Assembly (NCBI GenBank): GCA_977020255.1
Contig: CDROCS010003752.1
Location: 124,001-188,000, forward strand
Reading direction: 5' to 3'
DNA: 64,000 nt
From: Obrimoposthia wandeli
Taxonomy: Eukaryota
The notes beneath the pieces are model-generated. The model saw nothing but the letters and a program-made list of their open reading frames with translations. It had not been told where the DNA came from and did not search any database. The position numbers and the translations under genes were made by a program. The stretch's first letter is position 1, and every line of letters begins with the position of its first letter. Positions 987 to 59,900 of this stretch are shown here, piece after piece.

Positions 987-3900
987 TCAGTTGAACATGA
1001 GGTCCTTATACTCCCGCAGCAAGGTCACGATGCTGGTCGAGTAGCTCGTTGTCGTTCGCACTACTCGAAACCTGTCAGCCCGTTCGAAATTGGACTTCAC
1101 CATTTCGTAGTATTTGCCGTCACTCAGAGTCAGCGTCTTCAGCAGGGGACACTTCAACCTGTATCCACAGACAGATATATAAACAATACATACATATCTA
1201 CTAATCTTACATTTATAGGACTAAAATAATGTTTACTGTTACTAATTCTTTATTTTAATTTAGAAATTCACTAACAATTCATTAAATTTTAATACAGTCG
1301 CATTAGGAAGAGAAAAAGAAGATACCAACAGTCTTTTGACCTCAATTAATCATAGAGTGAATCAGTAAGACAGTGTGTAACAAAACAGGGACAGCAAAGT
1401 CGGGACCAGATAAATTTCTACAATTTTAACTGTCAGTCAGAGCAAGTTCAGGAAACTGTAAAGGATATAGAATTCCGAGGAAGACACAATTGTTGAAGAA
1501 TCGAGAATTTTGACTGACGATCAGAGCTGACAATTTACGTAGGAGACAGAAGCAGACATAACTTAAGACAGAATATCTTTGTGTAAACTTATAATAATTT
1601 ATTAATTGCTTTTCTACTAATTCCTTAACTTGGGAGTTAACCATCACAGTCCTTTCAGTAGTAAGTAAAGTCGTATACTTGTAACAGTCTCCAAAGATTT
1701 TTTAATATATAAAAATACTAGAATGCTCCTGCTTCGTTTCAAAAGTTAATGAATAAAGTTTTAGGAGAATTAAACTCGAAAGAAGCCGTTGTATATCTAG
1801 ATGACATATTAATATGTTCGGAGACAAAAAAGATATGTATAAAATGATACAAAAATTTTTTAAAAGAAATAATTAATGTTGGATTAAAATTGAAATTACA
1901 AAAGTGCCAATTTATGAAGACAGCTAAAATTTTTAGGCCACATAATTTCAGGAAAAGGTAAAATTAACAAACAGATCCGACTAAAATTTGAAGATATTAA
2001 AAACTTTGAACGACCGAAGTGTGTAAAAAGTTACGGAGTTTCCTGGGTCTAACCAATTACTAAGGAAGATTTATTAATAACTATTCTGAATATGCGAGAC
2101 CATTAGAGAAAATATCAGGTAGCAATGAGAAAAAACCTTTGGAATGAAACATGTGAGAACTCATTTCAAACTTTAAAAAGGAAATTAATAAAAGCACCAA
2201 TTTCGATTTATCCTGATTTTAAGAAAGATTTTTAGTAAACACCGATGCCAGTTTTGATAGAATTGGTGCAGTATTATCTCAAGTAAATGATTTGGGTCAT
2301 GAAAGAGTAATATCATATGGGTCAAAGACTATGAATCCTCATGAAACAGGTTACTGTATTACAAGAAAAGAAATGCTGCCCATTGTGTGTTTTACAGATT
2401 ATTTTAAACACTATCTCTATGGCCAAAGATTTCGTCTTCGAACTGATCACAAAGCTATAACTTTCATGATTAAAACTAAAAGCCAATAACATCTCAATTT
2501 CAAACGTGGTGCAATCATCTGAGTAGACTTGATATGGTTTCAGATAACAGAAAATGTGAAAACCACTTAAATGCTGATGTACTTTCCAGAAGTAAATGTG
2601 GAACTTGTGTTCAATGCAAAACTAATCATGAAAATCCAAAAACAGGGAATCTGAAAACAAAAGTTTTATCACTTGATATCAAAGATATTGGCATAGAATG
2701 GCAAAGTAATTCCGAAGAGATAAGAAAATTAAAAGTAAATATAGAGATAGAAGATAATTATAAAATTATTAATAATATACTAATGACTAACAATGATAAA
2801 GTATGGTTACCAAAAGAAAGTATAAAAGAGTTGATAATGCATGTTCTCAAAACTCTATGTCATGCTGGTTGGAGAAAAGTAATTGAATACATTTCTCATA
2901 GATTTGACTTCGTCGAAAGATTAAAATTTATCAAAAATATAATTCAAAGTTGTGAAAATTGTAAGAAACAAAAAGTAGTGACAACAAGAACAAAAGAATC
3001 AAATAAAGAAAATTCGGATTACAGTCTTTTTCGTAGCGTATTTATAGATTTTTGTGGGCCATTAAAAACAACATACAGTGGAAAAATATATAATTGGTAT
3101 AATTGATCAATTTGATTCTAAAATTTGGAGCTCCAAGAGAAATACATTGTGATCATGGGAAATCATTTGAATCAAATTTAATGAAAGAACTAACAAATAA
3201 ATGTAAAATTAAATTATTATTTCAAGTCCATATCAGTAGGTAGATGTGGCACTTCTGGCACAAAGCCCCCCCCCTGAGGACAAATTTTTTTAAGGTCAAG
3301 TTGAGGACAAAAAATGTAGGTCAAGTTAAGGTCACGGTGAGGTCAAGATGTAGGTCATGGGAAAAATGTAGGTCATGACCTCATAAGATCATGACCCCCC
3401 CCCTATGCTCAGGAAAAATGTCTTTGTCCTGAAAGACACACATCAAGTAGGGGGATGTGTGTCTTTCAGGACAAAGACATTTTGAGCACAGTTTAAGGTC
3501 ACGGTGAGGACAAGATGTAGGTCATGACCTCATGAGGTCAAGTCAAGTTAAGGTCAAGTTAAGGTCATGACGTCATGAGGACAATGTACTTTAAGGTCAA
3601 CTTAAGGTCATGATGAGGACAATGTACTTTAAGGTCAACTTAAGGTCATGATGAGGACAATGTACTTTAAGGTCAACTTAAGGTCATGACGTCATGAGGA
3701 CAACTTAAGGTCACAGTGAGGTCAAAAATATTCTATTTTTAGTAACATTCTTTAAATCTATATATCTTTTTATCTAAAGACTGTATTAACACCAATTCAA
3801 CAAAATACATCTAGTGTGTGTGTGTGTGTTTTATAATTTAAATTAAATTATCTACTTATAAAATAAAGTATTATATAATTTGATAAATTTATTTAAACTA

Positions 3901-6900
3901 AATTAAATTAAACTATCTACTTATAAAATAAAGTATTATATAATTTGATAATCATGTTTAAACGTTCCTATATCTATCTAACAAAGACAGTCACGTACTG
4001 CATCTATATTGCAAAAACCTGCAAATTTATGTAAATAAAGACAAGTATTTTAAACACATATATTCCTTAAAATCACAAAGGAGAATAAAAATATGTACAA
4101 CACATATAAAAAGTTTATACAACCTCATCCGGGTATAAAAAGTGACCATAGGCGACTGAACGGTTTTTCTCCACCCACTTGCGCTTATCATCACTACTAC
4201 TTAAGGCAATTTTACTTAACCTTAAAGTGAAAAGTTGATGATTTAGCGAGCTTATACGTTGTTGTTGTACACGCTCGCTAACGCCACTCTCATATACGGC
4301 TAAGTAATACGAGTGCCTAATACTCGTCTGTCGGAGACTAATACCTTTCGCTCTCATCTGAGATTCACCTGCTGTAGTCTCTAGGCTATATGATTTTGGT
4401 CGTAGAAAAATCCCTTGCCTATAACTAAATAATCCCTTACTCTCATCTTTAAATTTTCCTATCGCTGTATTAAGCGTCGTATAAAGCGGATGGGTTTTTG
4501 GAAATTTCGAGGTATCCAACAGTCCATCGGCAATCATAGCAGGTAACAGTGATTCTTGAACATTGACATTATTACACTTCAAGAAAAAGCTATCAGTGTC
4601 ACCCGCTATAATTCTAATGTCGCAGTTAAATTGAACTCGATATTTCTCCAACTGCTCATATTGTAGCTCATACATACGAAGTTTGCTTAAATCTAATACC
4701 GCCTGGCCCATGTAACTAGGACGATCCAAAACAATATTTTCCTTATCCAGTAAAACTGCAATAAGGTCCGTATCGATTTCAATTGTCCTACGAAAGTGGG
4801 CTTTACTGCAATAGGTAACCAGCTTCTGTGGAGTATTACAATTCCGGAGGTTAATTCTTTTCATCAGATTCTCAATGAGTTTTCCAAATAAAGAATTCAC
4901 CTTCAGTTTATAATAATCCCGCTCGAAATCTGTTGTAGCCGCAGCTCTTTTGAGAGAATTATCCTCAATATATTTTGAAAAAACATTAGTTTGTTCAAAC
5001 TGTATTGCTCTATATACAAAATCTACCTTAGCACCAATTCTAACGTACATTTGTAGCAATCTAGAATGCACAACATAATGTTTCTTAGGGTAATGTGTTA
5101 ATAACAATTTTTTAGTCTTACACCCTGGTGGACGCTGTTTAATGGGAGCAAGGGGAAGATCGTCGAATTTATTATGAAGCTCGAAGGGAATGGATAAATC
5201 TATTTCCAATAAATGAGCGAAGCGACTACAGGATAAATCTGCTGATTTTAAGCTGGAAATAATATTCCCCAAATCTAACCGATCAGTCACCCAGGAAAAG
5301 TTACCACAAGGTAAAAACTGGGACATAGCCCACCCGTACAAATTATTTACATCAATGTACAAAAGTTCTGTACCATCGATGGCGTCAACGCGGTGTTCAT
5401 TAACAAATGTCCTACCCCCGCGAATCCCAGACCGGAAGAGTCGGTACATTTCTGGATCCTGTATTAGCTCGACTCGCACAACGGGAGCAGAAGAAGAAGC
5501 CGGACGAAGCAGGGATTTGAAAGCACTCGCGAAAGTCAGTCCTGGAAATAAAATCATTTATTAAAATCATTGTGAAAATCATTGTGAAAATCATTGTGAA
5601 AATCATTACTTTGAAAATCATCTATCTAACAAAGACAGTCACGCATCTATATTGCAAATACTTGCATCTTTATGTAATCAATAGTAACATTTATTCTTGT
5701 ATATATATATGTGTGAGTATCTAACAAAGACAGTCACGCATCTATATTGCAAATACTTGCATCTTTATGTAATCAATAGTAACATTTATTCTTATACATG
5801 TATATATATATATGTGAGTATCTAACAAAGACAGTCACGTGTGTGTCTAACAAAGACAGTAATCAATACCTACAAAGATAGTCACGTGTGTCTAACAAAG
5901 ACAATCATCAATACTTACAAAGACGTGCTGCATCTATATTGCAAAAACCTGCATCTTTATGCAATCAATAGTAACAAGAACTACATTTATTCTTATACAT
6001 GTATATATATATATATATATATGTGTTAGTGTCTAAAATTAGAAAAAACTAGTAGAATACAAACCAGGAATGGAGAAGAAATTGAGTGGCTCCAATCCAT
6101 CGTCAGCAATGGCCTTGGTCCGGAATGCTGTAAACACGTCTGCTAGAAGGTAGATGTCCATCTTCATATAGACCAGCATATAGTCCCAGAGCGATGAGCA
6201 GCCGCTCTGAGTCCAGACCATCTTCGCCATCTGATATTGTGCTGGCTTGATCTTTTCATCCCACTTTGGCGGTAAGCTGGTGATTGCACGAAGAGCAGTC
6301 TCTGATACTGCCATATCGTATGGGAAGATTCCCTTGGCGCTCACCAGATGTTGCGGGAAGACCGAATGTGTAAGAGGAGTCACACCCAGGTTTTTCTAAG
6401 CTGCTGTTCAAAAATTGAAGGGAATCGATGAAACGTATACAGACTCCTCCAATATACACCATCATAGCCTGGAATTTCTCTGTTGATTGAGGTATAACAG
6501 ATACATTCCAGTCGGGAAACTTGCATAGTGCGTGCTTAAATATGTGGTGCATGTCATAACCCATAAGATTGTGAAAAATGACGGGAAAAGATCGATTGAT
6601 TCTACTTGATAAGTTGCATTTCGTATGCGCTGCTCCCAGGTATTCGCCAGTCATGTGATCGTGATCTCGAACGTTGTTTGCGAGTTTCTTCTTACACAGA
6701 TAACAGATTCTTGCTGCATTGAAACTCGATACCTGTTCCTGTGTGAGTTGTCGCATCACCTCGATCGCATGCTTCTTGTACCATGGGAGTACAACCTCTT
6801 TCACCAAGTCCTCTAATTTCTGCAAAAAGGATACCACACAAGATTCTCCGGTAAAGACCGAGTAATCATGTGTATACCCTCTCGTGGCTGCAACGGGAGA

Positions 6901-9900
6901 CATGAGCATATCGGCCGAGATTGGAAGTTGAATCTGATGGTGGATTCCATGTGGCGGCAGCACAGCCTCAAAGTCCGCGTAAACAGCAAAAGGCGGAGAA
7001 ATCGTTTTTGAAAAGTCCTTAAACTCAATATGCTTCTCTGTAGGCATTGAATAAAGCGTTGTATGATCTAAATTCATCCTACAGAGCGGAACGTGTTTGG
7101 CGTAACTTATCGGACTACGGAATCCATGAAGACACTTATGGCACCAAGTACACCGAATGCAATTAGATACACCTTTGTTCCTATAATTAAGCAGCCTATT
7201 GAGTTTAGGAATACCGACATAATGAAAATTATCATTATTTTCTAAAAGGAGAAGATTGATTGGCTTAGCGTCCGGGTTTGTGGTCCTGTAAATGACATCC
7301 ACATAGGGATTTTTGAAGATATCCCCATCTGTTTGCACATTAGAGAACCTATTGAATGTAAATACGTTGATTGAGAGAGATGTATTCTTTCTCTCAAATC
7401 GCGGTATATTACATAGACGCATCGGCATCTCATTCTCATCAAAAACTAATTGACTCAAAAGGGCATCATATTGCTTAACCCGCTGAGGATTAGTACGAAA
7501 TACGTCGCGGAAAAGTATAGATAAGATACTATAAAGAAAGCAGAAAGTGTTTGAGTTCTGCACATTGATAACGCAATGTGACAGTGCTAACTCAGATGGA
7601 GTAGGTATATAACTATAGATAGTTCATTGTCGTTGTTTTAGTCACAACAAACGAAATCTCCAGGAAGCGGTTCACTACCCAATTACTGCTACTTTGAGAA
7701 TAATTCTCAATCTTCTTGTTGATCCCATCTACTCCCGCATCTATAAACCCCTCATCTATGGGGAGCCCTCTATTGGAAAAATTCCAAGCGCGTGTTTCTC
7801 CAATATTGGAAAATTCAACACGCACCCCGAATTGAACCTTGCAAGTCGCAAACTTGCTGACTGTGTCCCTTAAGCTAGTCAAAAGGGATACAGGAACTTG
7901 TAAATCGATGAGATTGTCATTAGAAACATCTAATGACAATGTCTCAATCGTACCCCGAAGACTAGTCTTACGCTTAACAGCATTAACTTTGGAAAACTTC
8001 GCAACAGAGCTACCTGAAGTGGGCATAACACTTCTCTTGCGGGTAGATGCTGGTAACGGCGCGGGGATCATACCAACTGGAGGAGGCATAACTGGAACCA
8101 TTGGTGCAGCAGATGGTGGTGAAGCAACTGGACTAGAAATTGGAACAGCAGCAATTGGGGTAGATACTGGAATAGTAGCAGAAATTGGGGCAGCAATTGG
8201 CGAAGCAGCAACAACTGGACCAGCAACCCGAGAAATAGTAGCAGATCTATTCTGAAAGATGGCCTTCTTGCCACGTTGCTGGAAATGACGAAGATGGACA
8301 CGATGACGCGCCACAAACTCCAACCAATCAATCTCCTCCACGGAGAGACATACTGGACATACGTAGAATTGTTGTCCGTTGAACTTCTGTCCAAAGTAGC
8401 TCTTCATTTTTCCGTCACATTCCTTGTGACTCTCCTCGAAGCATAATTCTTTGTTCATATTGCAATTCTAGAAAGAAATAAATTAGCAGAAAAAATAACA
8501 ATAAACTTACCATTTTCAATTTCGTTTATAATAGGGAATTATTTGTTGATTGATGCTTGCTTATATACTATTTTCGAGCTAGTATTAAGCCAATCAGATT
8601 CATTCATTATTTAAACCAACCAGATTAATTTAAAACAGAATAGTTTACTGACAGATGTGAGTAGTTGAATTTTCATTAATATTTAAATAATCCAAACTAG
8701 CTGCAAAGCATTTCTTGTATGCACAATGCTCGCCATGTTTAATATATGGACAATTGATATTTGATGGATTTAATTGTTTTAATGTTTTCGAGTAATTTAT
8801 CACTCTAAATTCAGGAAAATATTTATTGATTGTCTTTATTTTAGCTCCATTATTTTCATCGAAACATAGAAAATTGATTTGGATACATCACAACAACGTT
8901 TTATTTCCTCAGTTATTTCTTGTATCTTGAAATAACTATTACCATCAACTAGTTTTAGTCGATGGTAATGCTTAATGAGATATCTATTTATTTTTCTTGA
9001 TTTTCTATTCATCATGTCCCATATGGGTTGCATTTTAAAAACATAATGTTTAGGATAGAAGATTGCATCCACATCCATTATACATAGTTCTTTTATTACA
9101 AATTCAGTATTATTATCAATAAAAGCTTCAAAATCAATAAAATAAACAGACATTTTTATAGCAATAATTTTATTTGATATTGTTTATATCTATTGTTTAT
9201 GCTTTAACCAAAGCAGACAGAGTTGTCCACATGACTGTGTTAAAACATTTTGATAATGTTTCTTACTAAAATGTACTTTCTTTCCAGAGTCAAGTACTGT
9301 AGATACTAATTTAGAAGGGTAATATATCCCAAAGGGGTCAAAAACAAAGATTTCATTTTCTTTAACATGTATTGCAATCCAATGTTCACCACGCAAATTA
9401 GATGAATGTGTATTGATTACATATCCACCTAGTCGAGTCAAAGAGGGGATGTGATCAAGGCTGTAGACTCCATTGAAACGCGAACCGAGTAGTTTTCTTC
9501 CGCTTTTTGTTATCTCGTCCGAACTAGAATATATATTAATTAATAAATTCAAACTGACTTACTTCATTTATATATCTTCTTTATTGTTTTCATTCTGTTT
9601 ATACTAGTACTGTTCCTCTCTTGGTAATTTGAACCTCAGAATCGAATACTCCATAGATTATAATATTAGTAGGGTGTTCAAGTGCTTTTGAAAACTTGAT
9701 TTCTACTTTCAAATTTCCCTGTTTAGGGATTTGAGCTTGATTAATATTGAAATCAGGAGAGAGAACAAATGTGAACAGTGTATACTTGTCCTTGAAATCA
9801 GTCATTGAAATTCTAATATTAGCATCCTTATCCAAATGACCAAGATTTCTAATTAAAGATTGCACATAAGAAAACACATAATCATCGTTTTCAAAGTCAT

Positions 9901-12900
9901 TCGTATAAGATTCTTGATAATCAATATTTCGTGCAAGTTTAATTGAACTCACATTCATGTGTCCAAATTGAGAAACCTCATTTTTAGACTCACCTCCATA
10001 GGTAGAAGTGTTTTGGAAAGCAATTAAAACAAAGTTTGGAAGTTGCATATCACCAAAAATCTGATCCTTGTAATAAGATAGTGCTCCCGTAGGGATAGCG
10101 TGAGAAACAAGATTAGTTTTTCTAATAGGATAACATGCATTTTGCTTCTCCAACCCCATTCGATGTGCAACAAGTACAGATGGTTTCACCTTTACTCGTC
10201 GAACCAGCAGTTTTGCTTCCGTAATCTCAATTGCGGTTTTAATAGTATCAGCGCAAACAACACTAAAACCTACTGGATTTCTCTTCATTCGAATATGTGC
10301 ACTTACACCGGGTAAAAGATACTTTGGTTGCATAAAGAAATCCAAATGGAGACTCCCACAAAGTGACAATACTTTAGACTTTGCAATCGAAGCAATTCTT
10401 CTTTTTTCGTCATTGTCAAACCCAATTGCATCAAGATTAATCAATTTCGTATCATTACCGTAATTCAACAATGTTTCAATCATTGCTTTATGGGTGTAAC
10501 TAGTATTATTTCCCTCAACTTTCACATTATTGAGACTGAGAATCACATCCTTGAAAAGAGTATGCAACATGTAATTAGCTGATTTGATATCCATACCATC
10601 ATCCAAATCACCTCCACCTTCCTTTGTAACTTTCAATTTAACGAGAAATAAACTATCATTCAAATCAAGATATTGAGTATTGGATCCATTAATATTGAAT
10701 TCTAAATCCGGAGAAGATGTCCCGTTAACCGTATTTGTTGGAAATATTTCTTCAAAACTAGCACTATCAACCACAACCTGAGGTATAGGTTTATCGAATA
10801 TACACAATTCAGTTTTAGCACAACTCATTACTTAAAAATTGTTCCACCTAGTTTCAAACGTTTGTTTATACCCGATGCTTTAGATGTTTTCTTACGTTTA
10901 TAACCACTTCCCTTTTGAGTTTTCTTTTTCAAAAATTCAGCTAGACTTGATCCAAGGCTGCATCCTTTAGTGTGGGAAGAAATTTCTCATCACCAGACAA
11001 GTATTTTGATCCAACATTAGCAATAAATTTCCCGAGTCGCTTGAGTAGTGGGAAAGCAAAGCGACCAAAAACCTTCATCCATCCTGATCCATACTGTTTT
11101 CCGGCAAAATAAGGCAAATCACCTCCTTGCATCGGTTTACTATACGCATCGATTATACTTGAATCAATCATATTTTTCTAAAATGTATTGTTAAACTTGT
11201 TTTAGCTCCAAATGAAAATTTAATTAATCTTCCTGAATCATCCCGAATGTTAACTTCAATATTGTTTATAGAAGAGGAACTCACAGGAATATACATTGGA
11301 TTTTCAATTGGGATATGTATAATATCTCCATACTTGTGCTTTTCCTGTTGAACCCAAATAGATTTTATTAATGGAAGTTTATTTCCACCCACAAATATCG
11401 GTTCAGTAATACTTGTGTAAATATAAATCTGATTATACGCATTACTTAGCTTTGCCCGATTAGATGCTCGGAAAACTTTATTAAGATTTTTAAAACTGTT
11501 TTCATTGAATCCTATAATTGTAGCTAAATTTTTATTCATATTTATTTATTTTACATGTGGTTTCAATTTAAACTTAATTATCTCCTTTTTAACATAAAAG
11601 CTTTCAAATATATTATCAATATTTTTCATGAAATATTGACAAAGACTTTCAACATTGGAAAATAAGCAATCATTTTCGAATGCATACTGCTCACGTACAT
11701 CCTCTTGATTATAATGATGCATCTTTAACTTTAATGTCGGTAAATCATATTTTTGATTTGGTAATTCCGATTCATAAAACATACTTTCAATAGGAGCTTC
11801 TTTCATACCGTAATTTAATGCTAAACTTTTATTATCAATTTCTAAATTGAAAGCTTGTCCCGTAGTGCGAATTATACAAATTTTGTTTTCGCCGCTAAAG
11901 TAAATAACATATTCACTATTAATTGGAGTTAAATACTTGACGAAAAATTCTCCATGTTTCATTTTCACACCAGCTTCAACTTCAGTTTTTATTCTTTTCT
12001 CCGCAACATAATCTATAATTGACCCTCCTTTAATGGATAGAGGAGAGTAATTGAAAGAAAATTCCGTCAGAGCAGCTTCCCAATGCCCAGGTAAATTGAT
12101 TGAGCTTTGATAATCAATACTAAAACTATTAGCAGTATTATTCGGCTGAGTTAATGGTGAACCATTACTTGGTAATACAACATACATTGAGTTCATTCTA
12201 TTTGAGAAGCTAATATCCAACTAGGTTCAGTATATCCATGCCACTTAACATGATATTGTTTATGCTTTCCTCTACCTTTTGTCTCTAAAATTTCTTGGAT
12301 TCTATATACATTTGGTTTCTCAGGCCAGACTTGTAATTCCTCATGATAAAATTTACCCGTGATTACATTATTGGTTTCATCCTCAATGAAATACATTACC
12401 GGCATACGTTTATTATCAATTTTAGTTATACGAAATACTTCATCGCTCCAATTCTCTTTGAAATTCTTTATAAAAGGAGTAGTACTAATTTGAGAAATAC
12501 GTACATAATCACCAACTTTATACTTGGGTTTCCGCGCAACTTGACTTTGATTACGGCATTGCCAAATTTCCATAGCATTCTCATCTGTAACATCAACGGG
12601 TCTCTTTCGGTCTAATGATGAGTGTTCACTATGATTGTATGCATGTATTATTTGAGGTAAAACAGTAACCCATGACTTATTTCCCTGCTTTGTGAAATAC
12701 TTTTTCAAACGATCTCTCAATGTTCGATTAAAACGTTCAACTAAAGCGGCTTTATATTGGGAAAATACTGAGTAATGATTAATGTTAGTTTTTCAATAGT
12801 GTTTCAACATGTTTATTATAAAACTCCTTTCCACTATCCGTTTGGAAATTTCTTGGTTTTATTTCTTTAATCAAAAGCTTCATTGCGGCTAAAACATCGG

Positions 12901-15900
12901 TACCAGACTTGGACTTTAATGGAATAGCTCGCGCGAATCTGCTAAAGACATCAACACAAGTTAAAATATATCGATATCCGTCGTTAATACTCGCATACGG
13001 AATCATTTCCATCAAATCTGCTTGCCATAAATCATTCGGGCCGCTCGTTTTGTATGATCTCGTTGGGACGTCTCATTGGTTTGTTTAAGCTGTAAGCTAA
13101 TTGATTTCTCAACCACGCCTGAGTTTCCTGCTTTGTCTTCTTTGACTCTTTTGCTAATTTTGAAACCCCTGTGTAACCGACGGGATGACTTGGATCGAAC
13201 CATATTTTCTCCATTGCAGCAAGACGATTTGATTTTTAAATTGAATTTAGGAATAGATGGAAGTGATCCCATATATAAATTCATATTATTGATTCGAATT
13301 TATGTTTATAATCATCGGTTTATTAGTCTACTAGCAAGTGCACCAACTATTGAGCTAATAATTGGTACGAGAAATCCTAAAAATCCACCACTTTGCTTAT
13401 AAAGCAACTTACGTTTACCGATTCGTGTTTTGGCATGAAACAAAGCAAGTAGAGGTTTCTTATGCCGATTCAGGTTAGCCTTGACAATTATTTTACCAGA
13501 AACTATTTTCTGTATCATATTAAGTAAATCATCAATTACAAAAGTAGGGAATGATTTAAGAATAGCTGGGCGGCGAATAGCAGGTGCACGCATGAGAGAA
13601 TTGAAATAGGCAATACTCCTAGATTTCTTAACAACAGTTCTTTTCGATTTTTGAGCAACCATTTTCCTTGCACTTAAAACTGATTTAATCAATTTTTTAA
13701 CTTCGGGTTTAACAGTTTTCTTTTTAAAATTCATCTTCTCAAAACTGGTTTCTTTGTTTGTTTATAAACGGTTATTCCCGATGGATTGAATACATCAGTT
13801 CTATCTCTAAAGTCATCGGGACAATCTTGAGTAAAATCAATAAAAATGTATCCATGAGGAATAGTAGTTGCATCTTGAAATGAATCAATTAAAAACTTTC
13901 TATTATTCGGGTAAGCTTGTCTTGAAACAAAATCAACAACCGTCTGATCACGTGGATTCTTGAAGAGAACAAGGTAATGTACATTTAAATTACGAGTTCT
14001 ATGGTTCCCTCCTTGATGAAATAGATTTTGTGTGATGAAAATAACAGTTACTTCCCGATGTCGTGCTATTTTAGTGAATAAATTATTGAAATCACTCTCT
14101 TTATTTGCTTCTTGATATAAATCATCAATAACAATAACATCATGTCGTTGTAATCGCTCAGACCAATTATCATCGAATCCATTAATGACTTTTATATTTT
14201 TGATTTTCTTAAACTCTTTACTGGTTAAACCAGCTTCTCCATCTCCTCCCTGATGCCAGTATATTTTATTAAACTTAAAACTAAAGTATTTATTATTTTG
14301 CAGTAATTTACATACAAAGTGTGTTTTCCCACTACCACTAGGACCTACAATCTGAAAAACTGAATTATTTTTTAAGTTCATATTAAAAATATTAGATTAT
14401 CGGGATAATGTTTATAAGACAAAACTATTTAAAATATTTTATTACGAAACATCCAGCAACAAACAATAAAAAACTCTTCTCGTAGAAAAAGCTCCTTTTC
14501 TCTTCTTTGTTTGCGAGTTTCTTCTGATTGTATCCCTGAATGAGAAGATTGACTGCCTTGTCGTGCACCATTCTTCTTACGTGCTCCTCCAGGGGTAGAT
14601 TTGAGACATCAATGAGTTGCAGGACATCTGGTTCTATGACATTCTTCGAGATGAAGCTCTTCACCGCCTTGTCAACATCTTGATTGAAATAGTTTTTAGA
14701 CATAATGATGATGAAGTAAAAAGTAATCTGCTTATATACTATACATCTGAAATCTGATTGGTTAATAAATACACTGACTAATAAAGACACTAAAGACACT
14801 GACTAATAAAGACACTAAAGACACTGATTAATAAAAACACTGATTAAAGATAAAGACGAATAAAATTTACACATAACGATTAAAAATACGTATTTGATGA
14901 AGCATAGCTTCATTAGGAGCAGCAATAGTCCGTTTAGCTTTAACAAGATTCGAAGCAGCAGTAACACCAATCGAATGAGATAAAAATGCAATATCAATGC
15001 AAGCAGCATGTAAACTACCATAATGACCACATACTAAAATCTTACCACCATTTTCGATAGTTTCTTTAATTATATTATTAGTCTGTTTATAATACTTCAT
15101 TATTGTTTCTCCTAATTTTGAGTTTACAAAGACAGAAGTATATTTTAATTTCTTATAAGATATTTTATCCAGTATAGATGTATTGATTACATGAGTGAAA
15201 TTGGAGTTCAAAATATTAGTTTCATCAAACCCATCTCGATAATTACCAATATATAATTGATTTACTAAAATCTCACTCATCGCTGTTTTGTTTAACTTTT
15301 CTACATTAAGTTGAGCAAATCTAGCACTAAAAAACTATCAAAAAGATGGGTCATGTGGTTCATTTCCATACTCGAAGCATGAGCTATTATGGGTTCCATA
15401 AAAGCCAAAGCATTTAAAAAATCTATCCGTCTCTTATCTTCAATAATTGGATCTATAATAATTTCTTCTTCTATCGTCACTTCTTCTATCGTCACTTCAT
15501 CAATAGTTTCTTCTCTTCTTATAACTGTTGTTGTTGTTGCTGGTGGTGATGATGTTACTGATGATGTTGCTGGCGATGATGTTGTTGGCGATGATATTGC
15601 TGGTAGTGATGATGTTGCTGGCGATGATGTTGCTTCTGGTGCTGAATTGATTTTCTCCATTTTATCAATTCCGAGTCAATTTAGTCTTATATATTAAACA
15701 AGGTTAGATTTCATTGGAGCATCAGTTTCATCATATGATTTGATTGGAGTATTATTCAATCTTTCCATTGTACTTAACATCTCATGTAAATGTAGTTGAT
15801 GACGTAACCTAAAGAGTTAAATAAACTACATATAAATATTACTCATGATTATTTTTCCTAATTAATGCATTGAGAATAACTGAAGCAAGATCTTTTAATG

Positions 15901-18523
15901 CATCCTGAACCTCTTTACATTCAATAATTTCATCCATTTTATGATAAAGCAAATCAAATATTGTTTATAACCCATGAAAAATCTATTTTTAGACCACAAC
16001 TATTTGCAACATTACAACGTTTGCAACTATTTGCAAGTATTGACATGTGATGTCTTTGTCTCTAAGATAAATCTATTTTTAGACCACATTACAACTTTTG
16101 CAACATTACAACTATTTGCAACTATTTGCAAGTAATGACATGTGATGTCTTTGTCTCTAAGATAAATCTATTTTTAAAACTATTTGGTTTAGGAAATAAA
16201 TAACACAAGTGTGAAGATCTATATTAAACAAAATACATTCAATCAGATACTCATAGTTTAAAGATTTAACACCGAGTATCATAATCTTCCCGCTAGCAAA
16301 AATGTTCACGCATAGGGGATTGTATTTGACGTATCGAAGTCCCGGGAAGATTTCTGGCTCGTAAACAGCTTCCGATCCCATACTCTTGCTCATCTTGTTT
16401 AGGTTTATTGATGTTTCTAGATTTCTGCTGAGACTGATTGATTGGATTCTTTCGATTTTTATATCAAAAGGAAGACTGCTTTCATCCAGCACTGTTTTGC
16501 AACCCATTATTCTGCATGTACCTAAATTATAATTATATATAAATGTAAAAATAAATTACCAGATTTGAAAATGATAATAGTGTAACCTTCACACTTGAGT
16601 CGATACTGATGAGGCTTCGAAGTCCGAAATGGTAAGTGTTGGTTGTTACTTACAACCATTCCCTTGTAATTAATATTCACTAATTTGATATTGTGAAGTA
16701 GCATTTCTGATTATTATAAACTGATTTCTTCTATTTATACAATTTGAACATCTATTTTTAGATTTGCTTAATTGCCTATGCTATGAAATCTAATATTTCT
16801 TACTCGTCTAATGATAATTGTCTTGCAATATGGACATGTAATAAAACGATCTGAACATTTAATACACGTGTTTAAGTGACCGCATGGTAAAAGTGCCACG
16901 GAAATCGCATCGCTCATGCAAACAACACATTCGGGATTTGGTAAGAGGTACTCGAGATAATTTATCCGATGTTTTGATTCAGATTTTATTTCTAAAGACC
17001 TTAAATCCGTTATAAACTCATATATAGAATCATATTTGTTACCGAATGTTTTAAACCTATTAAGTAAAACGGCTTTGATTCTATCATGACTGTAATCACG
17101 TTTCAGCAAAACTATTTGACGAGTTTCCATCTGAGCATCAATTTCATCATTACTAATATGATATTCAACAATACATCCGTTCTTGATTCCCATACTAAAT
17201 GCTTTACAATCTCGAGTATGAAAGATCAGACATAGTATCAATAAGGTCAAGTCGGGGTACTGCTTTCCGACAGAAACAACATCGATAAGAATCATTCCAA
17301 ATATATACATTATCGAAAATCGATAATGTAGGTATTTCAATACCATTAGAATAATTATTGCGCACAATAACTACTTTATCCATTGGAGTTGTATCAAAAT
17401 CAATTTGGGTGGTGTTGGAATCAATTATTGGTACGTTTGAAACATTCATTTTCAAAACAAACGGGCATCTTGGGAAAAATAGCTGATGCTGTTTCATTGG
17501 TTTCAGATAGTACTCCCATCCCGATATTCCTCCCTGACAGTAAATACACTTTACATTATCTTTCGAATCATCGTGCTTGTAAAATCCTGCTTTTGCTAAA
17601 GCTTTCTTAAAGCTTTGGAGGATAAACAATTGAATATTTCAATTTATAATTGTCAATATGAATTTCGAAAAGCTATATCTACCTATGCATACATATTATG
17701 GATATGAAATGCACTTTTTGAAGAAAGCTCATAACTATAATTTTATTTTTCCTGTCAACATCGAGCCGCTTAAATTTGATTTTGAAATATCAAATTTGAC
17801 TTCTGTGGATAAAGAGAGAATCAATATTCTCCTGACTCAATTCGGAATCAACTATGCGCTTCAGGAAAACAAATTCGTAATCAAAGGATCAACTGCCACT
17901 TTCAAGCATGAGAATGGAACAATATACGAAGCACCTCCTCCTAAGCTAGAATGGATTCTCTCAATCAGAATTCAAGGATGCAAGATCGGGCCCAGTGGAT
18001 TGGAAACTACGATATGGAAAATAATTGATGCTGTTAGAGTTGACTAATAAATTTTTGTGTCTTTATTTGTATTATTTTATATATATAAAAACAATAGTGA
18101 TACTTTAATATTTATTATGAAAATGACTAAAAAACCTACTAAATCATTAAAGACTAAGGTTAAAAAGACTATGAGTAAAAAGACTATGAGTAAAAAGAAA
18201 ATCATGGAGGGTTTGGGTATTCATATGATGGCAGCAAATCTTTTAGGTAGATGGTTTGGTGGAGTTGATAAAAAAGCTATAAAGCACAAAAAGAATGTGG
18301 ATTATTTGAGAGGTATACAAAATCAGAAACGAGTGCAAAAAGGAGATGGTATACAAAAAGGGGATGGTATGCTTGATATTTTTGTAAAATTAGATAAACT
18401 TACAAAAGCATTTGAAAAGGATCCTAGTGCCTATCTTGGTCCAAAACTAAACATTTTAGCAAACCAACCAAAAACTTTGTAATTACATTGCAATATAGAT
18501 GCAGAGTGTCTTTGTTAGACACT

Positions 18524-18580
<57 letters not shown>

Positions 18581-21500
18581 AAGAATAAATGTTACTATTG
18601 ATTACATAAAGATGCAAGTATTTGCAATATAGATGCGTGACTGTCTTTGTTAGATAGATATAGGAACGTTTAAACATGATTATCAAATTATATAATACTT
18701 TATTTTATAAGTAGATAGTTTAATTTAATTTAGTTTAAATAAATTTATCAAATTATATAATACTTTATTTTATAAGTAAATAATTTAATTTAAATTATAA
18801 AACACACACACACACACTAGATGTATTTTGTTGAATTGGTGTTAATACAGTCTTTAGATAAAAAGATATATATATTTAAAGAATGTTACTAAAAATAGAA
18901 TATTTTTGACCTCACCGTGACCTTAAGTTGTCCTCATGACGTCATGACCTTAAGTTGACCTTAACTTGACTTGACCTCATGAGGTCATGACTTACATCTT
19001 GTCCTCACCGTGACCTTAAGTTGACCTCATGAGGTCATGTCATCACCGTGACCTTAAACTGTGCTCAAGGGGGGGGGTATGCTCAAAATGTCTTTGTCCT
19101 GAAAGACACACATCACCCTACTTGATGTGTGTCTTTCAGGACAAAGACATTTTTCCTGAGCATAGGGGGGGGGGTCATGACCTCACGAGATCATGACCTA
19201 GATTTTTCCCATGACCTCATGAGGTCATGACCTACATCTTGACCTCACCGTGACCTTAACTTGACCTACATTTTTTGTCCTCAACTTGACCTTAAAAAAT
19301 CTTGTCCTCAGGGGGGGGCTTTGTGCCAGAAGTGCCACATCTACCTACTCATATCATCATTCAAGTAACAGACAAGTTGAAAGACAATTTCGGACAATCA
19401 GAGATTCATTAAATTTAACAATGAAAGATAAATGCTCTAAAAATTGGGCTGACGTTCTTCCAGAAGTAGAGTTCTCTATGAATACTACTGTACAAGCAAC
19501 AACAAAAAGAGTCAAATGGAATAATATTTGGATTTTTTTTTCTTGAATGGTTTGAAGAAAAAGAAAGAGACGAAGACACATTTAAAACCTACAAAAACAG
19601 AATTAATCAAAATAATGAAAATAACTTAATTGAAAATAATTATCGACATTTTAATATCGGCGATGAAGTATTGTTAAAAATATATGTTCGAAATAAGGAT
19701 GATAATCGCTAAGAGGGTCCTGGAGCCATAGTAAAGAAAATACATAATAGAGCTTTCAAAATAAAATTTCCCAACGAAATATGTAAAGAAAGGAATATAA
19801 AATGAATAAAACAATTTAAAACACCAAGGGAGATCTAATAGATTGTGTAAACTGTGGTTTAAGGACCTACGGTCTTTAGGTAATATGTATACTGGTGAAT
19901 GTGTGATTGTGTGGTATGTTTATATTGCTCAATAATGAACTATATATATCCTCAGCACAACAATGAATGTTGTTTATTTATTAATATAGTTATGCCTGAA
20001 CTTCAGTCTTCTAACAAGATTCTTTATAAAATACAAGACAAAATCCAACACATGAACCTTCACATTTTGAAACTACACAGGAAAGGCCTTTCACAAAAGT
20101 CCTATATCATTAAAAACTCACAACTTAAAAGCTTCCATAAGAAGTGTAATAACTCTAGTCTCAACAGTTTTATAGGTCCTTTAGTGGGCCCGATAATTTT
20201 GACACATTAAATGGAGCTACTTAGTCGTTTTTTCTCATGAAACCCAGGGAAAATATAGACGGGTGTAATCAGAGGCGGACCCAGTTTTGATAGTCAGGAG
20301 GAGTGAAGTATCTTTTGACTACATGTTCATTTTATTTTTCCAGATTTTTCATGTTTGATTGTGTGTTTCTTTTAATTGGTTAATTTAATTTATTCAATGT
20401 GTATAGTTACAGGATCTGTAATTGTATTGGCTGTTATTTTTATTTTATCTAAAGCTGCTTATTTGAAAACGGTGGCGGTTGCTAGCAAAAAAAAGTTTGT
20501 CTTCTGTTCACTTTTTATTTATTTCGTTTTTATATCCCGAGGTTGTTCATAGTGTTAGTCTTGGTGTTAATTTCAATTTCAATGTATCTTAAATATTAAT
20601 TATTACATAAAATAAAATTACCTCATGAACTTAAACTAATAATGGACATTTTGCATTTGTTTCGAACTATCAAATAAAAATGATTCCATATTAATCATTA
20701 TCTTGTAATGAGCTACGTTTTAGTCAATAAAAATATAAAAATAATATATTCTAAGATATTTAAAATTTCACTGAAAAAAAACTTATACACATTTAGAATA
20801 TATTTAAATTGTCTACAGTACATTATTTATTGAGTGCCCTATAATAATAAAAAACATTTTGAAAAATAAAAGCACTGATTATTTAGATTGATCTTGAAAT
20901 CTAATAATATTTTTTCATTTTGTCGGCACATACTCTGCTTACTCCCTAACTAGGTTCGCCACTGGTTGTAAACTACTTGAATTTCTTATATTTTCTAATG
21001 TAATATTTTGTTGCTTAAGGGGTTAAGATTTTGAATCGAAGTGACACTATTTCATATACCTAATATTACATTAGACGATAAATTTGGGAATAATAGGTCA
21101 AATTTGTCAAAAGTGTATATTTGTATTTTGTTATCCATAATGTTAATGATACAGGTCCAAAGTGTTGGAAGGGCTAGGTTTCAGTGTACACCATGATAAG
21201 AAGACACACCTGATGTGATCGATGAATTTGCGGCTCTTGTCGCTGAAGCGGATCGTGTCGGGGTCCCACTGGATCTCAAGGGCCTCTAGCTGGGGACAAT
21301 TCTGTGCAAAGGCCTCCACGATCTGGTCGATGTGCACTCGCGTATTGTACTTGTAGAACCATCCATCAGCAGCCCCCAGGACGCAGATTCTAACACGGCC
21401 AAAGGCCATCATAGGACGATGAGCATATAACACTGTTCATTATTATTTATATTCTAGGTGTTCTGAGTTGAATTTGATGAATGACTTATGATGAAAGATT

Positions 21501-51949: not shown

Positions 51950-53463
51950 TGTCTATGGATTGTCCATTATCAAATATTTAGCTAGATTGGATGGAATTTC
52001 ATTCACCAGGTACATGACTGCATTTTGTAGTTTGGGAAGTAATTTATCATCACCGGATAAGGATTTTGATCTAACATTACCGATAAATTTCCCAAGTCGT
52101 TGGATTAGAGGGAAAGCAAAACTTTCATTCATCCAGATCCATACTGTTTCTCAACAAAATAAGGCAAATCACCACCTTGTATAAGTTTACTATACGCATT
52201 GATTATACTTGAATTACCACTATAAACAATATTTCGATAATGCTTTTATTAAATATGAATGATCAAGATAGAGCAAGCACATATATAGGTTCTGGTAGTA
52301 ATTTATAGGCTAATATGGATTATAATATAAATAATATTAAACATATTCATCCATCAACGAAAACAATAACTAGACCTACGCGAGTAACCGAAGAACGTAA
52401 GCCCTTTAAGGATTTGACTAATACTAAACGATTTTCATAAACAACATTATTAACATAATTAGAATCGAACTTTAAAGGTTAAACAATTGAATATTTGAAC
52501 TTTAAATAGCAAATATGAAATTCGAGAATCTGAATTTCGAAAAGCTACATCAGCCAATGTTCAAATATCACGGATATGATATGCATTTTTTTGAAGAAAT
52601 CTCACAGCTATAATTTTATTTTTCCTGTCAACATAGAGACGCTTAGATATGATTTCCAGGTATCAAATTTGACTTCAGTGGATAAAGAGAGAATCAATAT
52701 TGTCTTCAATCAATTCGGGATCAAATGTGAGTTTCAGGAAAACAAATTCATAATCAAATGCTACTAAATGCTACTGTTGAGAATTAAAATATTCCAATTT
52801 GAATTTAAATCAATTTATCAAAGTGCCCACAGTCGAACAGCGATTTTTTCAGTTATATCCAGTTCTTATATTGTGCTTCGCGGTAGGAAAATTGTTCTTT
52901 ACCACCTTTAGATAAAAATATATAGTTTTAAAGAAAGATACTAAAAATAGAAATATCCTCAAAAATACATGTATTTTATAGGCTGAGTCCTCATTAGGTC
53001 ATGACATCATAAGGTCATTGGTTGCCACGGTACCGGTTGTCATGGCAACTTGACCTTGTCCTGAAAATCACATAGCAACATGACTATGATCTGATATTGA
53101 CTATTTGTGTAAACAGAGCAAAATCATGATTCACATTAATTGGAAAAAAACTTGAGTAAAATTTGTATTTTTGTCGTATAATTTTTTAAAAATATTTAGA
53201 AACTGTGAAAAAAAACTTTCTGAACCCTCTTGTAAAATACAAAACGGACCAAAATATTTAAATTTGTAGGTTATATTATAATTTTTGATTTCCATAAATT
53301 TTAGGCATTGCTTTTTCGTTTGTTTTATAGAAAAATACGTATATATGTAATAAAAAAAAGTTGATTTGTTATTTTTGTAGTTATATAATACTTAATTTTA
53401 AAGGAAATATTAAATAAAATTAAAATTAAGGGGGTGCTTTGTTCCAGAAGTGCTACATCTACT
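51950..53463 (-). mobile_element. Internally deleted remnant of a sister Maverick (cupiennin-like fragment, 129-aa ORF homolog, right terminus)
   Basis: 51970-52215 aligns with 10930-11165; 52490-52767 aligns with 17623-17890; aggtcatgac repeats at about 52995-53015; ends ggggtgctttgttccagaagtgctacatctact, like 19312-19349. Confidence 0.88.
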
Positions 53464-53929
53464 AATATTCATTCATTTTGAGAAAATTGAAATCTAATGA
53501 ACAAAATTGCAAATATTTATTCCGTGAATTTCTGAGTTATTGAGATCAGGAAATTAATTCCGAATAAAGAATGAAAATCTGTTGTTTTTAACAGTTTTAC
53601 ACATGTCTGTCTAATCAAATATGAAGAGCAATATTTGTGCAAAGCGGAAATAAAATTTAGCCTCAGATTAAGCAGAGAATCGCAGAAATTTCAATATTAA
53701 TTGTACTCTTATAACTTATTGTTATACAGTTTGGCCAGATAATTGCGACTGTGATTGGTTGAAGGCAATTATACGACAGAGAGATCAGTTAGTTAGTCTT
53801 GTTCTAATCCTGTCCAATTGGTGTCCAGAGTGTCTCTTCTTTTCTTGTAGTTCCAGTACAGTTGAGTTGAAAAGAAACAGAATCTGTGAAGCACAGTTGA
53901 GACTCTCTCTCTCTCTAATTGCACAATCG

Positions 53930-56900: not shown

Positions 56901-59900
56901 CATTTTTTCAAAAAAAATTGCTCTATAAGGAATATTGCTCTATAAGGAACGAACTTCCCTGTCCCTTGAAAGTTCCTTATAGAGCAATTCTACTGTAATT
57001 ATAAAAATACCTGAATGAAATTATGATTTGAATATTATTGTGCATTCAAATTTTATTCGTAATCATGAAGCAAAACTATTCCTAAACATTTAATTTCATT
57101 ATTGGAAAAAAAATTCAATCGAAAAACCCAACTGGGAAATAGCTGGGCATTTTTTTTGGCCACGTCAAAGAACCATACAGGATAAAACCTAGTAAAAACC
57201 CTGTATCAGATAAGGTTTAATACTAAACCATCGGCTGTGTCAGCAGCAAGGGAAGTTGGTATTTGTCATGGACAAGGCGTTCAAAAATACATATTTAAAT
57301 ACATGAATAATCTAATTTCGAAGTATAAAACATAAATGTATTTCATAAAATACAAAATTTACAAACCTTTTTCTACTTCTTCTTAAATTGATCACAGTAT
57401 TTTTTTGAGATCTGCTAAAATTCGCAACCAAGAAATTATAAAATATAAAATATTACTTAAGGCGAATTAGGTAAACCATAAGTTTAAATTGACAATATTT
57501 TTTTAGAAATTACAAAATCAATTAAAATAGAAGAAAAATACGACTGAATAAATAAATATTATTAATTTAGGACTAAGATTATAGACTAGTTTATTTTAAT
57601 TAACATTTTTAATTTTATGGCCGATACTAACCGAGAAAATCAGCCAGGACCGGCTTTAATATGGTCTGTTATCTTTTTAACCAACTAACTGATAGATACG
57701 AAATGAATAAGGCCATATATTTAATATTTTATGTCTCAAATTTTTAAGTTTGTTTACGGTTTCAGCATTGGATATTTTATTTTCTCCATATCTTGGATTG
57801 ACTTAGTATCGATAATTTATTTGACTGGGACAATCGCCATGTGGAAGGAATATTAAACGCATGGCACATTGGGTGAGTTTTGCAAACTGAATTGACAAAC
57901 AGCCCGGAACTTCATGCCAAATAACGACACCATACCAAACTTCCATTACCGAATGAAAAATCGCCTACCAAATATGCTAAACTGAAATATTCGATAAGTC
58001 AAATCTCTAAAAACTCCCGTGTCCCTCATTTGAGAAGTTTGAAGTAACTGGGAGAATTCATTCAGTGCCTCTGAGTAGCCACTATGGCTAGATACTGTCG
58101 CTACAGTACAGTGATATATGTGATGCATATTGACATACACAGCTCATATATTTAATAGACGGTCCTATATCGAGTCTCGACGAGCGCCGTGGTAGTCTAC
58201 AAACTATGCGCCAGTTCCAGTCGATGCCGGCGGCGCCAAACTCGAGCAACTTGCGCCATTTGTTGGACTCGCGAGTGCCACTGCCAGCCCCTCGACAAAG
58301 AGGCTGCAGCATTCAGGACGCTGTAAGACTCCGAACACTTCGGTAATGAGGCTTTCTTCCGCATTGAGGATGATACATTTAAGGGAAATTTATATTATAT
58401 TTTGTCTTTATTGGTTTTTAAGTTATTTACTTTTGCACAAACAATCTGGTATACACGGTCTCAGATACTAAATACTTAACATACGGTGATCCTCAAGGTT
58501 TGATTATTGGTTCAATCCTATTTTGGATGTATACTGTGTCAATCGTAGCGAGAAAGATCACCACCTTTATGCTATTGACATAGGACTTTATGCTCATTTT
58601 GATTCTTAAAAGATAAAGATTAATATAAACCATGTTAAAGAAAAAAGAAATTTCATACATATCTGTGACTATATTATAAATAAAATAATAAAATAAAGAA
58701 CGCGGGTGGTGTCTTTAAAAGAAATATTACAATGGACTGTCAAATGAATAAAGTGATAAGAACATACAACATTCATATTAAAACGATTTATCTGATGAGA
58801 AAATACCTTACTACTAAGATAATTACAACGCTAACTCAAGACTATTTTTTTCAAATTTGTTTACGTTTTTTCAAATTCCATCTTATCACTTTAAATGTGC
58901 TTGTGCAAGTGAACATTTATTGAAGATCCATTGGATACAGATCAATGCTAAAATTGAATTCAAGATCGTATAAAAATGAATTCTCTAACAATAGTCAAAT
59001 ATTGATATGATCTTCTCGAGCCTGGTGATGTGACATCTTAGGAGCAATGATAGTGACTGCATATAGGTTAGGAGAGAGTGATGGGATATTTTAAAGTTAT
59101 GTTGCGAATCAGTACAACAATTAACTGATGAATATAAGAAACTGTAACAATGACGAAAAATTCAAGATATAACTGAAGAATTTACTATTCAGAAAATTGA
59201 CGAAGAATAATGGCAAATAGAAAGTACTTTTGGGTGTAAAGTCAAAGATTTATTAGATAAAATCGCTGTATTAATTAAATTATTTCATTGTTTTAAATTG
59301 TATTATATTTCCAAGACTTTTTGTATAAATGCCATTATATTCAAATTGAATCCATTTAAAAACTGAAGAACCACTAAAAATATGGAGAGATAAAATTCCC
59401 AGACATTAATAAATTAAGTTAAATAAGGATTGTTTTGTTGAATCAGATACAAACAATGTAAAAAAAATGAGAAAAATATGTTAGAAGACTGAAGTTCAGG
59501 CATAACTATATTGATAAATAAACAGCATTCATATCATTATTTTGCAATACAAACATACCACACAATCACACATTCACAAGCATACATATTACCTAAAAAC
59601 CCGTAGGTCCGTAAACCACAGTTTATACAATCTATTACATCTCCCTCGGTTTTTAAAATTGTTTTATCCATTCTATATTTTTTATTTTACATCTTTCGTT
59701 GGGAAATTTTATTTTGAAAGCTCTATCATGTATTTTCTCTATTATGACTCCAGGACTCTCATAGCGATTATCATCCTTATTTCGAACATATCTTTTTACC
59801 AATACTTCATCGCCGATATTAAAATTTCGATAACTATTTTCCTTGAGGCTATTTGCATTCTTTCGGTTAATTCTGTTTTTGTAGGGTTTAAATGTCTCTT

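Follow-up and report, generated by a model that had tools for sequence, protein, structure and literature searches.

Terminal inverted repeats of a Maverick family in Obrimoposthia wandeli carry variable arrays of candidate nuclear-receptor half-sites

Introduction

Polinton/Maverick elements are recognized by terminal inverted repeats (TIRs) with AG...CT ends and by a target-site duplication (TSD) of 6 bp. How these elements are switched on, and which roles their long TIRs have apart from the outermost bases, are questions raised by a stretch of 64,000 nucleotides from O. wandeli (contig CDROCS010003752.1, positions 124,001 to 188,000 of the forward strand; referred to here as the window and numbered from its first base). 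In it, the left TIR of one such element holds a dense array of the hexamer AGGTCA. This word is the half-site of RXR and its partners, for which DR0 to DR5 and IR0 are known spacings, as excerpts of the literature state (PMC11376212). Is the array a hormone response element, a set of sites for other host factors, a binding region for a protein of the element, or a product of the copying itself?

Results

The element that holds the array is a young copy of a family that we call A (Table 1). It has AG...CT ends and a 6-bp TSD (CATATC, at 3229-3234 and 19350-19355), and it sits inside an integrase-like ORF that belongs to another element. The two parts of the split ORF (2534-3234 and 19356-20016) match a further repeat copy at 59479-60192. 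Both polB and the integrase of the young copy are broken into pieces. Pfam matches were obtained for the retroviral-type integrase (PF00665, E 7.8e-13), the A32-type ATPase (PF04665, over the cut-off) and the C5 (adenovirus-type) protease (PF00770, E 4.5e-4, just under the cut-off). A 409-aa ORF adjoining the protease (9599-10828) has 71 unnamed homologues and no Pfam match; its position and homologues suggest that it encodes the major capsid protein. The TBP-like, BIR/RING (IAP-like) and dual-specificity phosphatase genes lie at 16157-16555, 16768-17638 and 14867-15334, and promoters of the element are a conceivable target of the TBP-like protein. Another ORF, of 281 aa (7613-8458), has a Cys/His-rich N-terminus and no Pfam match (Atlas lead 0.75). 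The inner TIR and the polB gap (3834-3995, 5620-6036, 18500-18800) carry repeated TAACAAAGACAGTCA and 65/95-bp units. Each terminal gene points towards its TIR, and the array is therefore not a proximal promoter for either of them.

Family A is represented by 5,023 exact genome-wide matches to a 24-nt pattern of its end, and its capsid gene by at least 102 copies at 98-100% identity; on these counts it is a large recent burst. Its short derivatives (five of 66-80 bp and 74 of 87-426 bp) are heterogeneous. The terminal core and C-run of family A would be the end that the polymerase or integrase recognizes. A second family, B, has a capsid 55-57% identical and is three times commoner, with 15,725 exact end matches. 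Together, the end matches of the two families amount to an exceptional Maverick load in a genome of 1.35 Gb. Part of a family B end also lies in the window, at 158-420, as a tandem 21-bp array with a reversed family B terminal block.

Table 1. Positions of the family A element, its parts and a related remnant in the window.
Feature	Position	Strand	Observations
Polinton/Maverick, family A, 16.1 kb, young copy	3235..19349		AG...CT termini, CATATC TSD, gene set
Left terminal inverted repeat	3235..4063	+	blastn to right end, 83% over 850 columns with unit indels; inverted-repeat arms
Terminal core plus C-run	3235..3275	+	Common to all family A subfamilies; constant while arrays differ
Outer half-site array	3277..3381	+	6 AGGTCA, 2 AGGACA, IR0 at 3370
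Perfect hairpin, 30 bp, 9-nt loop	3415..3483		Splits half-site array
Inner half-site array	3496..3724	+	13 AGGTCA, 5 AGGACA, IR0 at 3519, ER4 at 3525, CRE at 3568 and 3687, 38-bp super-repeat
Protein-primed polB in pieces	4115..7623	-	Reads towards left TIR; PF03175 E 2.5e-5 (below cut-off) on one piece; ORF map
Virion/integration block	9190..14396	-	C5 protease, putative major capsid protein, integrase in pieces, A32-type ATPase
Accessory genes: dual-specificity phosphatase, TBP-like, BIR and RING (IAP-like)	14867..17638	-	PF00782, PF00352, PF00653, PF13920
Right terminal inverted repeat	18569..19349	-	16 AGGTCA, unit arrangement differs from left
Remnant end of older sister lineage	52900..53464	-	DR0 AGGACA-AGGTCA, degenerate ER4/IR0 block, no DR5

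On the plus strand of 3293-3724 we recounted 19 AGGTCA, the number given in a preliminary description of the window, out of 34 in all 64 kb. The enrichment check that the description had proposed bears this out: 2,000 dinucleotide shuffles of the same segment gave a mean of 0.89 and a maximum of 5. Half-sites five bases apart, the feature of a DR5 response element, form seven exact pairs and not the eight that had been announced; all six pairs listed at the time are there, and the seventh is 3329/3340. Their number rises to 12 when AGGACA, of which the array has eight, is counted as a half-site. The two IR0 palindromes (AGGTCATGACCT) and the two copies of the CRE word TGACGTCA were found where they had been described (Table 1). 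A second dominant period is 16 nt (DR10). The polarity of the array is near-total, with only two TGACCT; T(A/G) directly precedes 22 of 27 half-sites, and hexamers occupy 174 of the 432 nt.

Sixty family A termini were compared, chosen by contig order among the first 100 listed of the 5,023 matches and thus not at random. At least five AGGTCA are present in 45 of them. The hexamer is absent from eight, and seven of these stop about 45 nt or less from the end. Per kb there are 20.4 copies in family A, 1.3 in family B and, over 63 kb of host loci, 0.41; in family A, forward copies outnumber reverse ones by 488 to 94. Of 475 short gaps, 203 are DR5, more than for any other spacing, with DR10 nearly as common; DR5 occurs in 34 and IR0 in 31 of the 60 termini. 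One terminus (L348) has 23 AGGTCA arranged as DR0, DR4 and a 29-bp unit, with neither DR5 nor IR0. The proposal that DR5 and IR0 form a functional grammar finds no support in this comparison: what is constant across the relatives is the hexamer, not the spacing. When all hexamers of the 60 termini were ranked by the number of recurrent flank contexts, AGGTCA came first with 56 (25 recurrent flanks on the 5' side, 30 on the 3' side), and the next had 29. Shifting the window by one base halves the count, so that the invariant is exactly the half-site, an AGGTCA core with free flanks. At least two AP-1 words are found in 19 of the 60 termini and TGAGCTCA in ten.

Could such an array be a neutral minisatellite? 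Slippage and quasi-palindrome template switching would then amplify a seed word, AGGTCA would be the microhomology for unit swaps, and IR0, ER4, CRE and AP-1 words would be by-products of a TCATGA palindrome. Several observations fit. TRF finds tandem periods of 11, 36, 38 and 76, and the number of units differs between the left and right TIRs of a single copy. A single palindromic TCATGA block yields IR0, ER4 and CRE by one-step changes, and TGACTCA, TGACCTCA, TGACGTCA and TGAGCTCA are one step apart. Family B ends, moreover, amplify unrelated, arbitrary units of 25, 7 and 5 bp and form fold-back hairpins of their own, which makes tandem turnover generic to Maverick ends in this genome. However, units that arise head-to-tail should carry evenly spread changes, and here the units are heterogeneous and the changes avoid the core. 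In recurrent 11-bp units, 5-9 of 23, 10-12 of 30, 4-7 of 20 and 5-7 of 21 changes fall in the core, where a fraction of 0.55 is expected (p 0.001-0.10 over four settings, with units that share ancestry and significance not reached in every tree). These tests are suggestive of selection on the hexamer, bearing in mind the shared ancestry. There are more than ten recurrent versions of the 5-nt spacer and essentially two of the core, and the invariance stops exactly at the edges of the hexamer. In three termini (L316, L318, L322) AGGTCA persists as islands inside AT-rich units that share only this word with other units. All seven common variants among those listed for 3293-3724 lie outside the hexamers, in public contigs from four runs of one sample that is possibly the assembly's own source. 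We therefore regard a neutral minisatellite as rather unlikely. The preliminary description had left a choice between conserved spacing and simple 11-bp slippage; the array is neither plain slippage nor a conserved retinoid element, because the hexamer is kept in related TIRs and the spacing is not.

The closest relatives show how far the arrays can change. The 20 best-matching ends, the copy at 3235 included, have 17-22 AGGTCA, one or two CRE and no AP-1 word. A wider set of 76 sibling ends shares the terminus and the hairpin, with neighbouring proteins mostly 65-90% identical; nine further sibling ends were sorted by the hairpin filter among 13 'old' ends and are left out of the counts. The median number of AGGTCA in the 76 is seven, with spacers of 0, 4, 5, 6, 8 and 10, and three of the 76 lack the word. 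TGA(C/G)TCA, a textbook motif of AP-1 type, occurs in 63 and in at least two copies in 51. The two counts show no trade-off among siblings (rho 0.02). Changes in AP-1 units show no core bias in 11-bp units (p 0.5) and a bias in 12-bp units (p 0.016). Six termini (L040, L191, L208, L223, L234, L341) have arrays of ATGACTCAT with a period of 11-12 bp, and some sibling ends with such arrays lack AGGTCA in the inner array or entirely. In another subfamily (L322, L343, L361) the amplified unit is a TGAGCTCA palindrome, which makes a third variant of TGA(N)TCA. In a tree built from 68 rows of the inner TIR segment, with 44 others set aside, the young clade (100/99) is nested in the hairpin-bearing group and the older lineage falls outside, the order of siblings being unsupported.

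The older sister lineage also bears on the hairpin that interrupts the array (fold z = -10 for the TIR). The arms of the hairpin are an inverted pair of the older lineage's terminus, so that it is probably a relic of a fold-back or end junction. Old-type termini occur with unrelated flanks, and one terminus (L319) retains a full inverted old end. Rfam gave 13 weak matches, all below the gathering score and reflecting the hairpin. A similar fold-back hairpin was gained independently in family B (L145, L266, L279). The ends of the older lineage, including the remnant near 52995, have AGGACA-AGGTCA without a spacer and an ER4/IR0 block, and DR5 was found in none of the older-lineage ends listed. 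The remnant has two AGGTCA, 16 apart, plus TGACCT/TGTCCT. The idea that the motif persists there thus holds for the hexamer and fails for DR5.

Does the element itself read the array? The hexamer might be an iteron, comparable to the subterminal sites of transposases or the packaging repeats of adenovirus, that is bound by one of the element's own proteins (the integrase, the packaging ATPase, a partner of the polymerase or the product of an unassigned ORF); its likeness to receptor sites would then be a coincidence. The array is indeed polar, subterminal and present at both ends; AGGACA stands inside the terminal 30 nt of the older lineage and is repeated inward; most family B ends have one TGTCCT after the C-run; and a different motif in family B would fit co-evolution with a diverged protein. 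Nevertheless, Pfam found no DNA-binding family other than TBP-like among 21 ORFs scanned, and lineages whose neighbouring proteins are 65-90% identical switch between AGGTCA-rich and AP-1-only arrays. Family B mini-elements of 175-183 bp (348 matches; TSDs in three of four checked) have moved without any receptor-type array. We consider the iteron explanation unlikely. These mini-elements (as at L270/L271, L276/L277 and L280/L281) are fully palindromic with 6-bp TSDs, and by structure they are MITE-like non-autonomous Mavericks.

The receptor-type array is lineage-specific. All 30 family B termini examined have 0-3 AGGTCA, and Mavericks in general therefore do not need such an array. Among 28 metagenome loci of at least 2.5 kb (of 70 loci), most of which are without ends, no AGGTCA cluster was among the results listed. 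One distant metagenome relative (L120:1-230; 30% capsid identity) starts with GATGACAA(AG) repeats, one TGAGTCA and an inverted repeat; this start may be a TIR array built on a different word. Viral contigs had neither capsid relatives nor the IR0/ER4 block; their DR5 matches were ten, isolated and with at most four sites in 2 kb, and were taken as chance.

Which host proteins could bind the array? The genome has 57 zf-C4 matches. In 11 of the 20 loci parsed we saw P-boxes, mostly CEGCKG or CEGCKS, which match AGGTCA. Three domains were tested, and their best matches are COUP-TF, the thyroid hormone receptor (TR) and RXR; by similarity, the host thus encodes COUP-TF-, RXR- and TR-like DNA-binding domains of the class that reads AGGTCA. 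With RXR- and TR-like domains in the host, seven perfect DR5 and two IR0 in one TIR, and DR5 as the modal spacing of family A, one may ask whether the transposon answers retinoid or thyroid-type hormones through a ligand-responsive DR5/IR0 element. The sequence T(A/G)AGG(T/A)CA of the array resembles TR half-sites of the TR-monomer motif. Excerpts of PMC3340398 describe thyroid elements with DR4, IR0 and ER6 and AGGACA half-sites in candidate TREs. Against a hormone response stand the scatter of DR5 and IR0 among termini, their absence from L348, the DR0/ER4 arrangement of the older lineage and the near-equal frequency of DR10. Spacing would be kept wherever a DR5 element is kept, and it is not. 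Moreover, no RAR orthologue was identified among the three of 57 zf-C4 matches assigned by search. A ligand-gated retinoid DR5 response is unlikely, and a transposon that answers either type of hormone through DR5/IR0 spacing strikes us as highly improbable.

Discussion

We lean, with modest confidence, towards reading the array as a rapidly evolving module of the termini that resembles an enhancer and would be bound by host nuclear receptors and bZIP factors. New units could be created when protein-primed, strand-displacement copying slips or switches template at a fold-back; selection for successful copying would then retain the units with an intact hexamer. Orphan or promiscuous receptors (COUP-TF-, RXR-, TR- or TR2/4-like) might bind the half-sites singly or loosely spaced, and AP-1/CREB-like factors the bZIP-type TGA(N)TCA sites. 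Once bound, they would raise transcription of the element's genes from a distance. They may in addition assist initiation at the neighbouring end, much as the NFI/Oct-1 sites in the inverted terminal repeat of adenovirus do; there, NFI acts at the terminus.

The element itself is an ordinary Maverick, and arrays of host-factor sites at viral ends are of a kind already known. Duplicated host-factor blocks are the enhancers of the cytomegalovirus immediate-early and polyomavirus control regions, of LTR U3 and of baculovirus hr. These share with family A the modular nuclear-receptor, CRE and AP-1 words, the block duplication and the fast turnover beside an origin or palindrome. In contrast, the family A arrays are predicted from sequence, lie at both ends of an integrating DNA element and stand downstream of terminal genes. 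At the left end of adenovirus, a protein-primed relative, host factors that include a nuclear receptor bind repeats beside the terminus (excerpts of PMC5033970); it has few fixed sites, whereas the array described here has about 20 perfect AGGTCA. The same excerpts report that COUP-TF binds the packaging A-repeats without a shown role, and that binding did not track packaging efficiency. Predicted receptor binding, therefore, need not mean function. With RXR/RAR DR5 and TR IR0 response elements the arrays have in common the half-site and several spacings (excerpts of PMC11376212 and PMC3340398), but in family A the spacing varies across subfamilies and many spacings coexist.

The Maverick (adintovirus) TIRs already described belong to the same class of element, with the same gene set, AG...CT termini, 6-bp TSD and TIRs of several hundred bp. 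In the literature searched (PMC6431247, PMC8502044 and PMC11296320, each represented by part of its text) we found no description of internal receptor or AP-1 arrays, hairpins or their turnover in Maverick TIRs, although TIR listings in Repbase or in supplements might pre-empt ours. In the available part of the adintovirus paper, neither 'enhancer' nor 'promoter' occurs (PMC8502044).

A more far-reaching idea is that Maverick termini are evolvable enhancers, and that competing lineages swap arrays of receptor, AP-1 and CRE sites to tune their activity; the young burst would then coincide with the replacement of AP-1 arrays by some 20 receptor sites at each end. We put this forward as doubtful. 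The O. wandeli genome offers a natural series for such questions, with thousands of ends, receptor-type, AP-1-type and mixed subfamilies, and a control family without these arrays. The array is also a short cis element with named candidate host factors, and can be tested directly. If it is active, some 5,000 ends, at a median of seven sites each (a rough product), could influence nearby host genes or sequester receptors. Should the evolvable-enhancer idea be true, the activation of a capsid-coding transposon would be tied to the developmental or hormonal state of its host, and thousands of receptor clusters would lie scattered across the genome.
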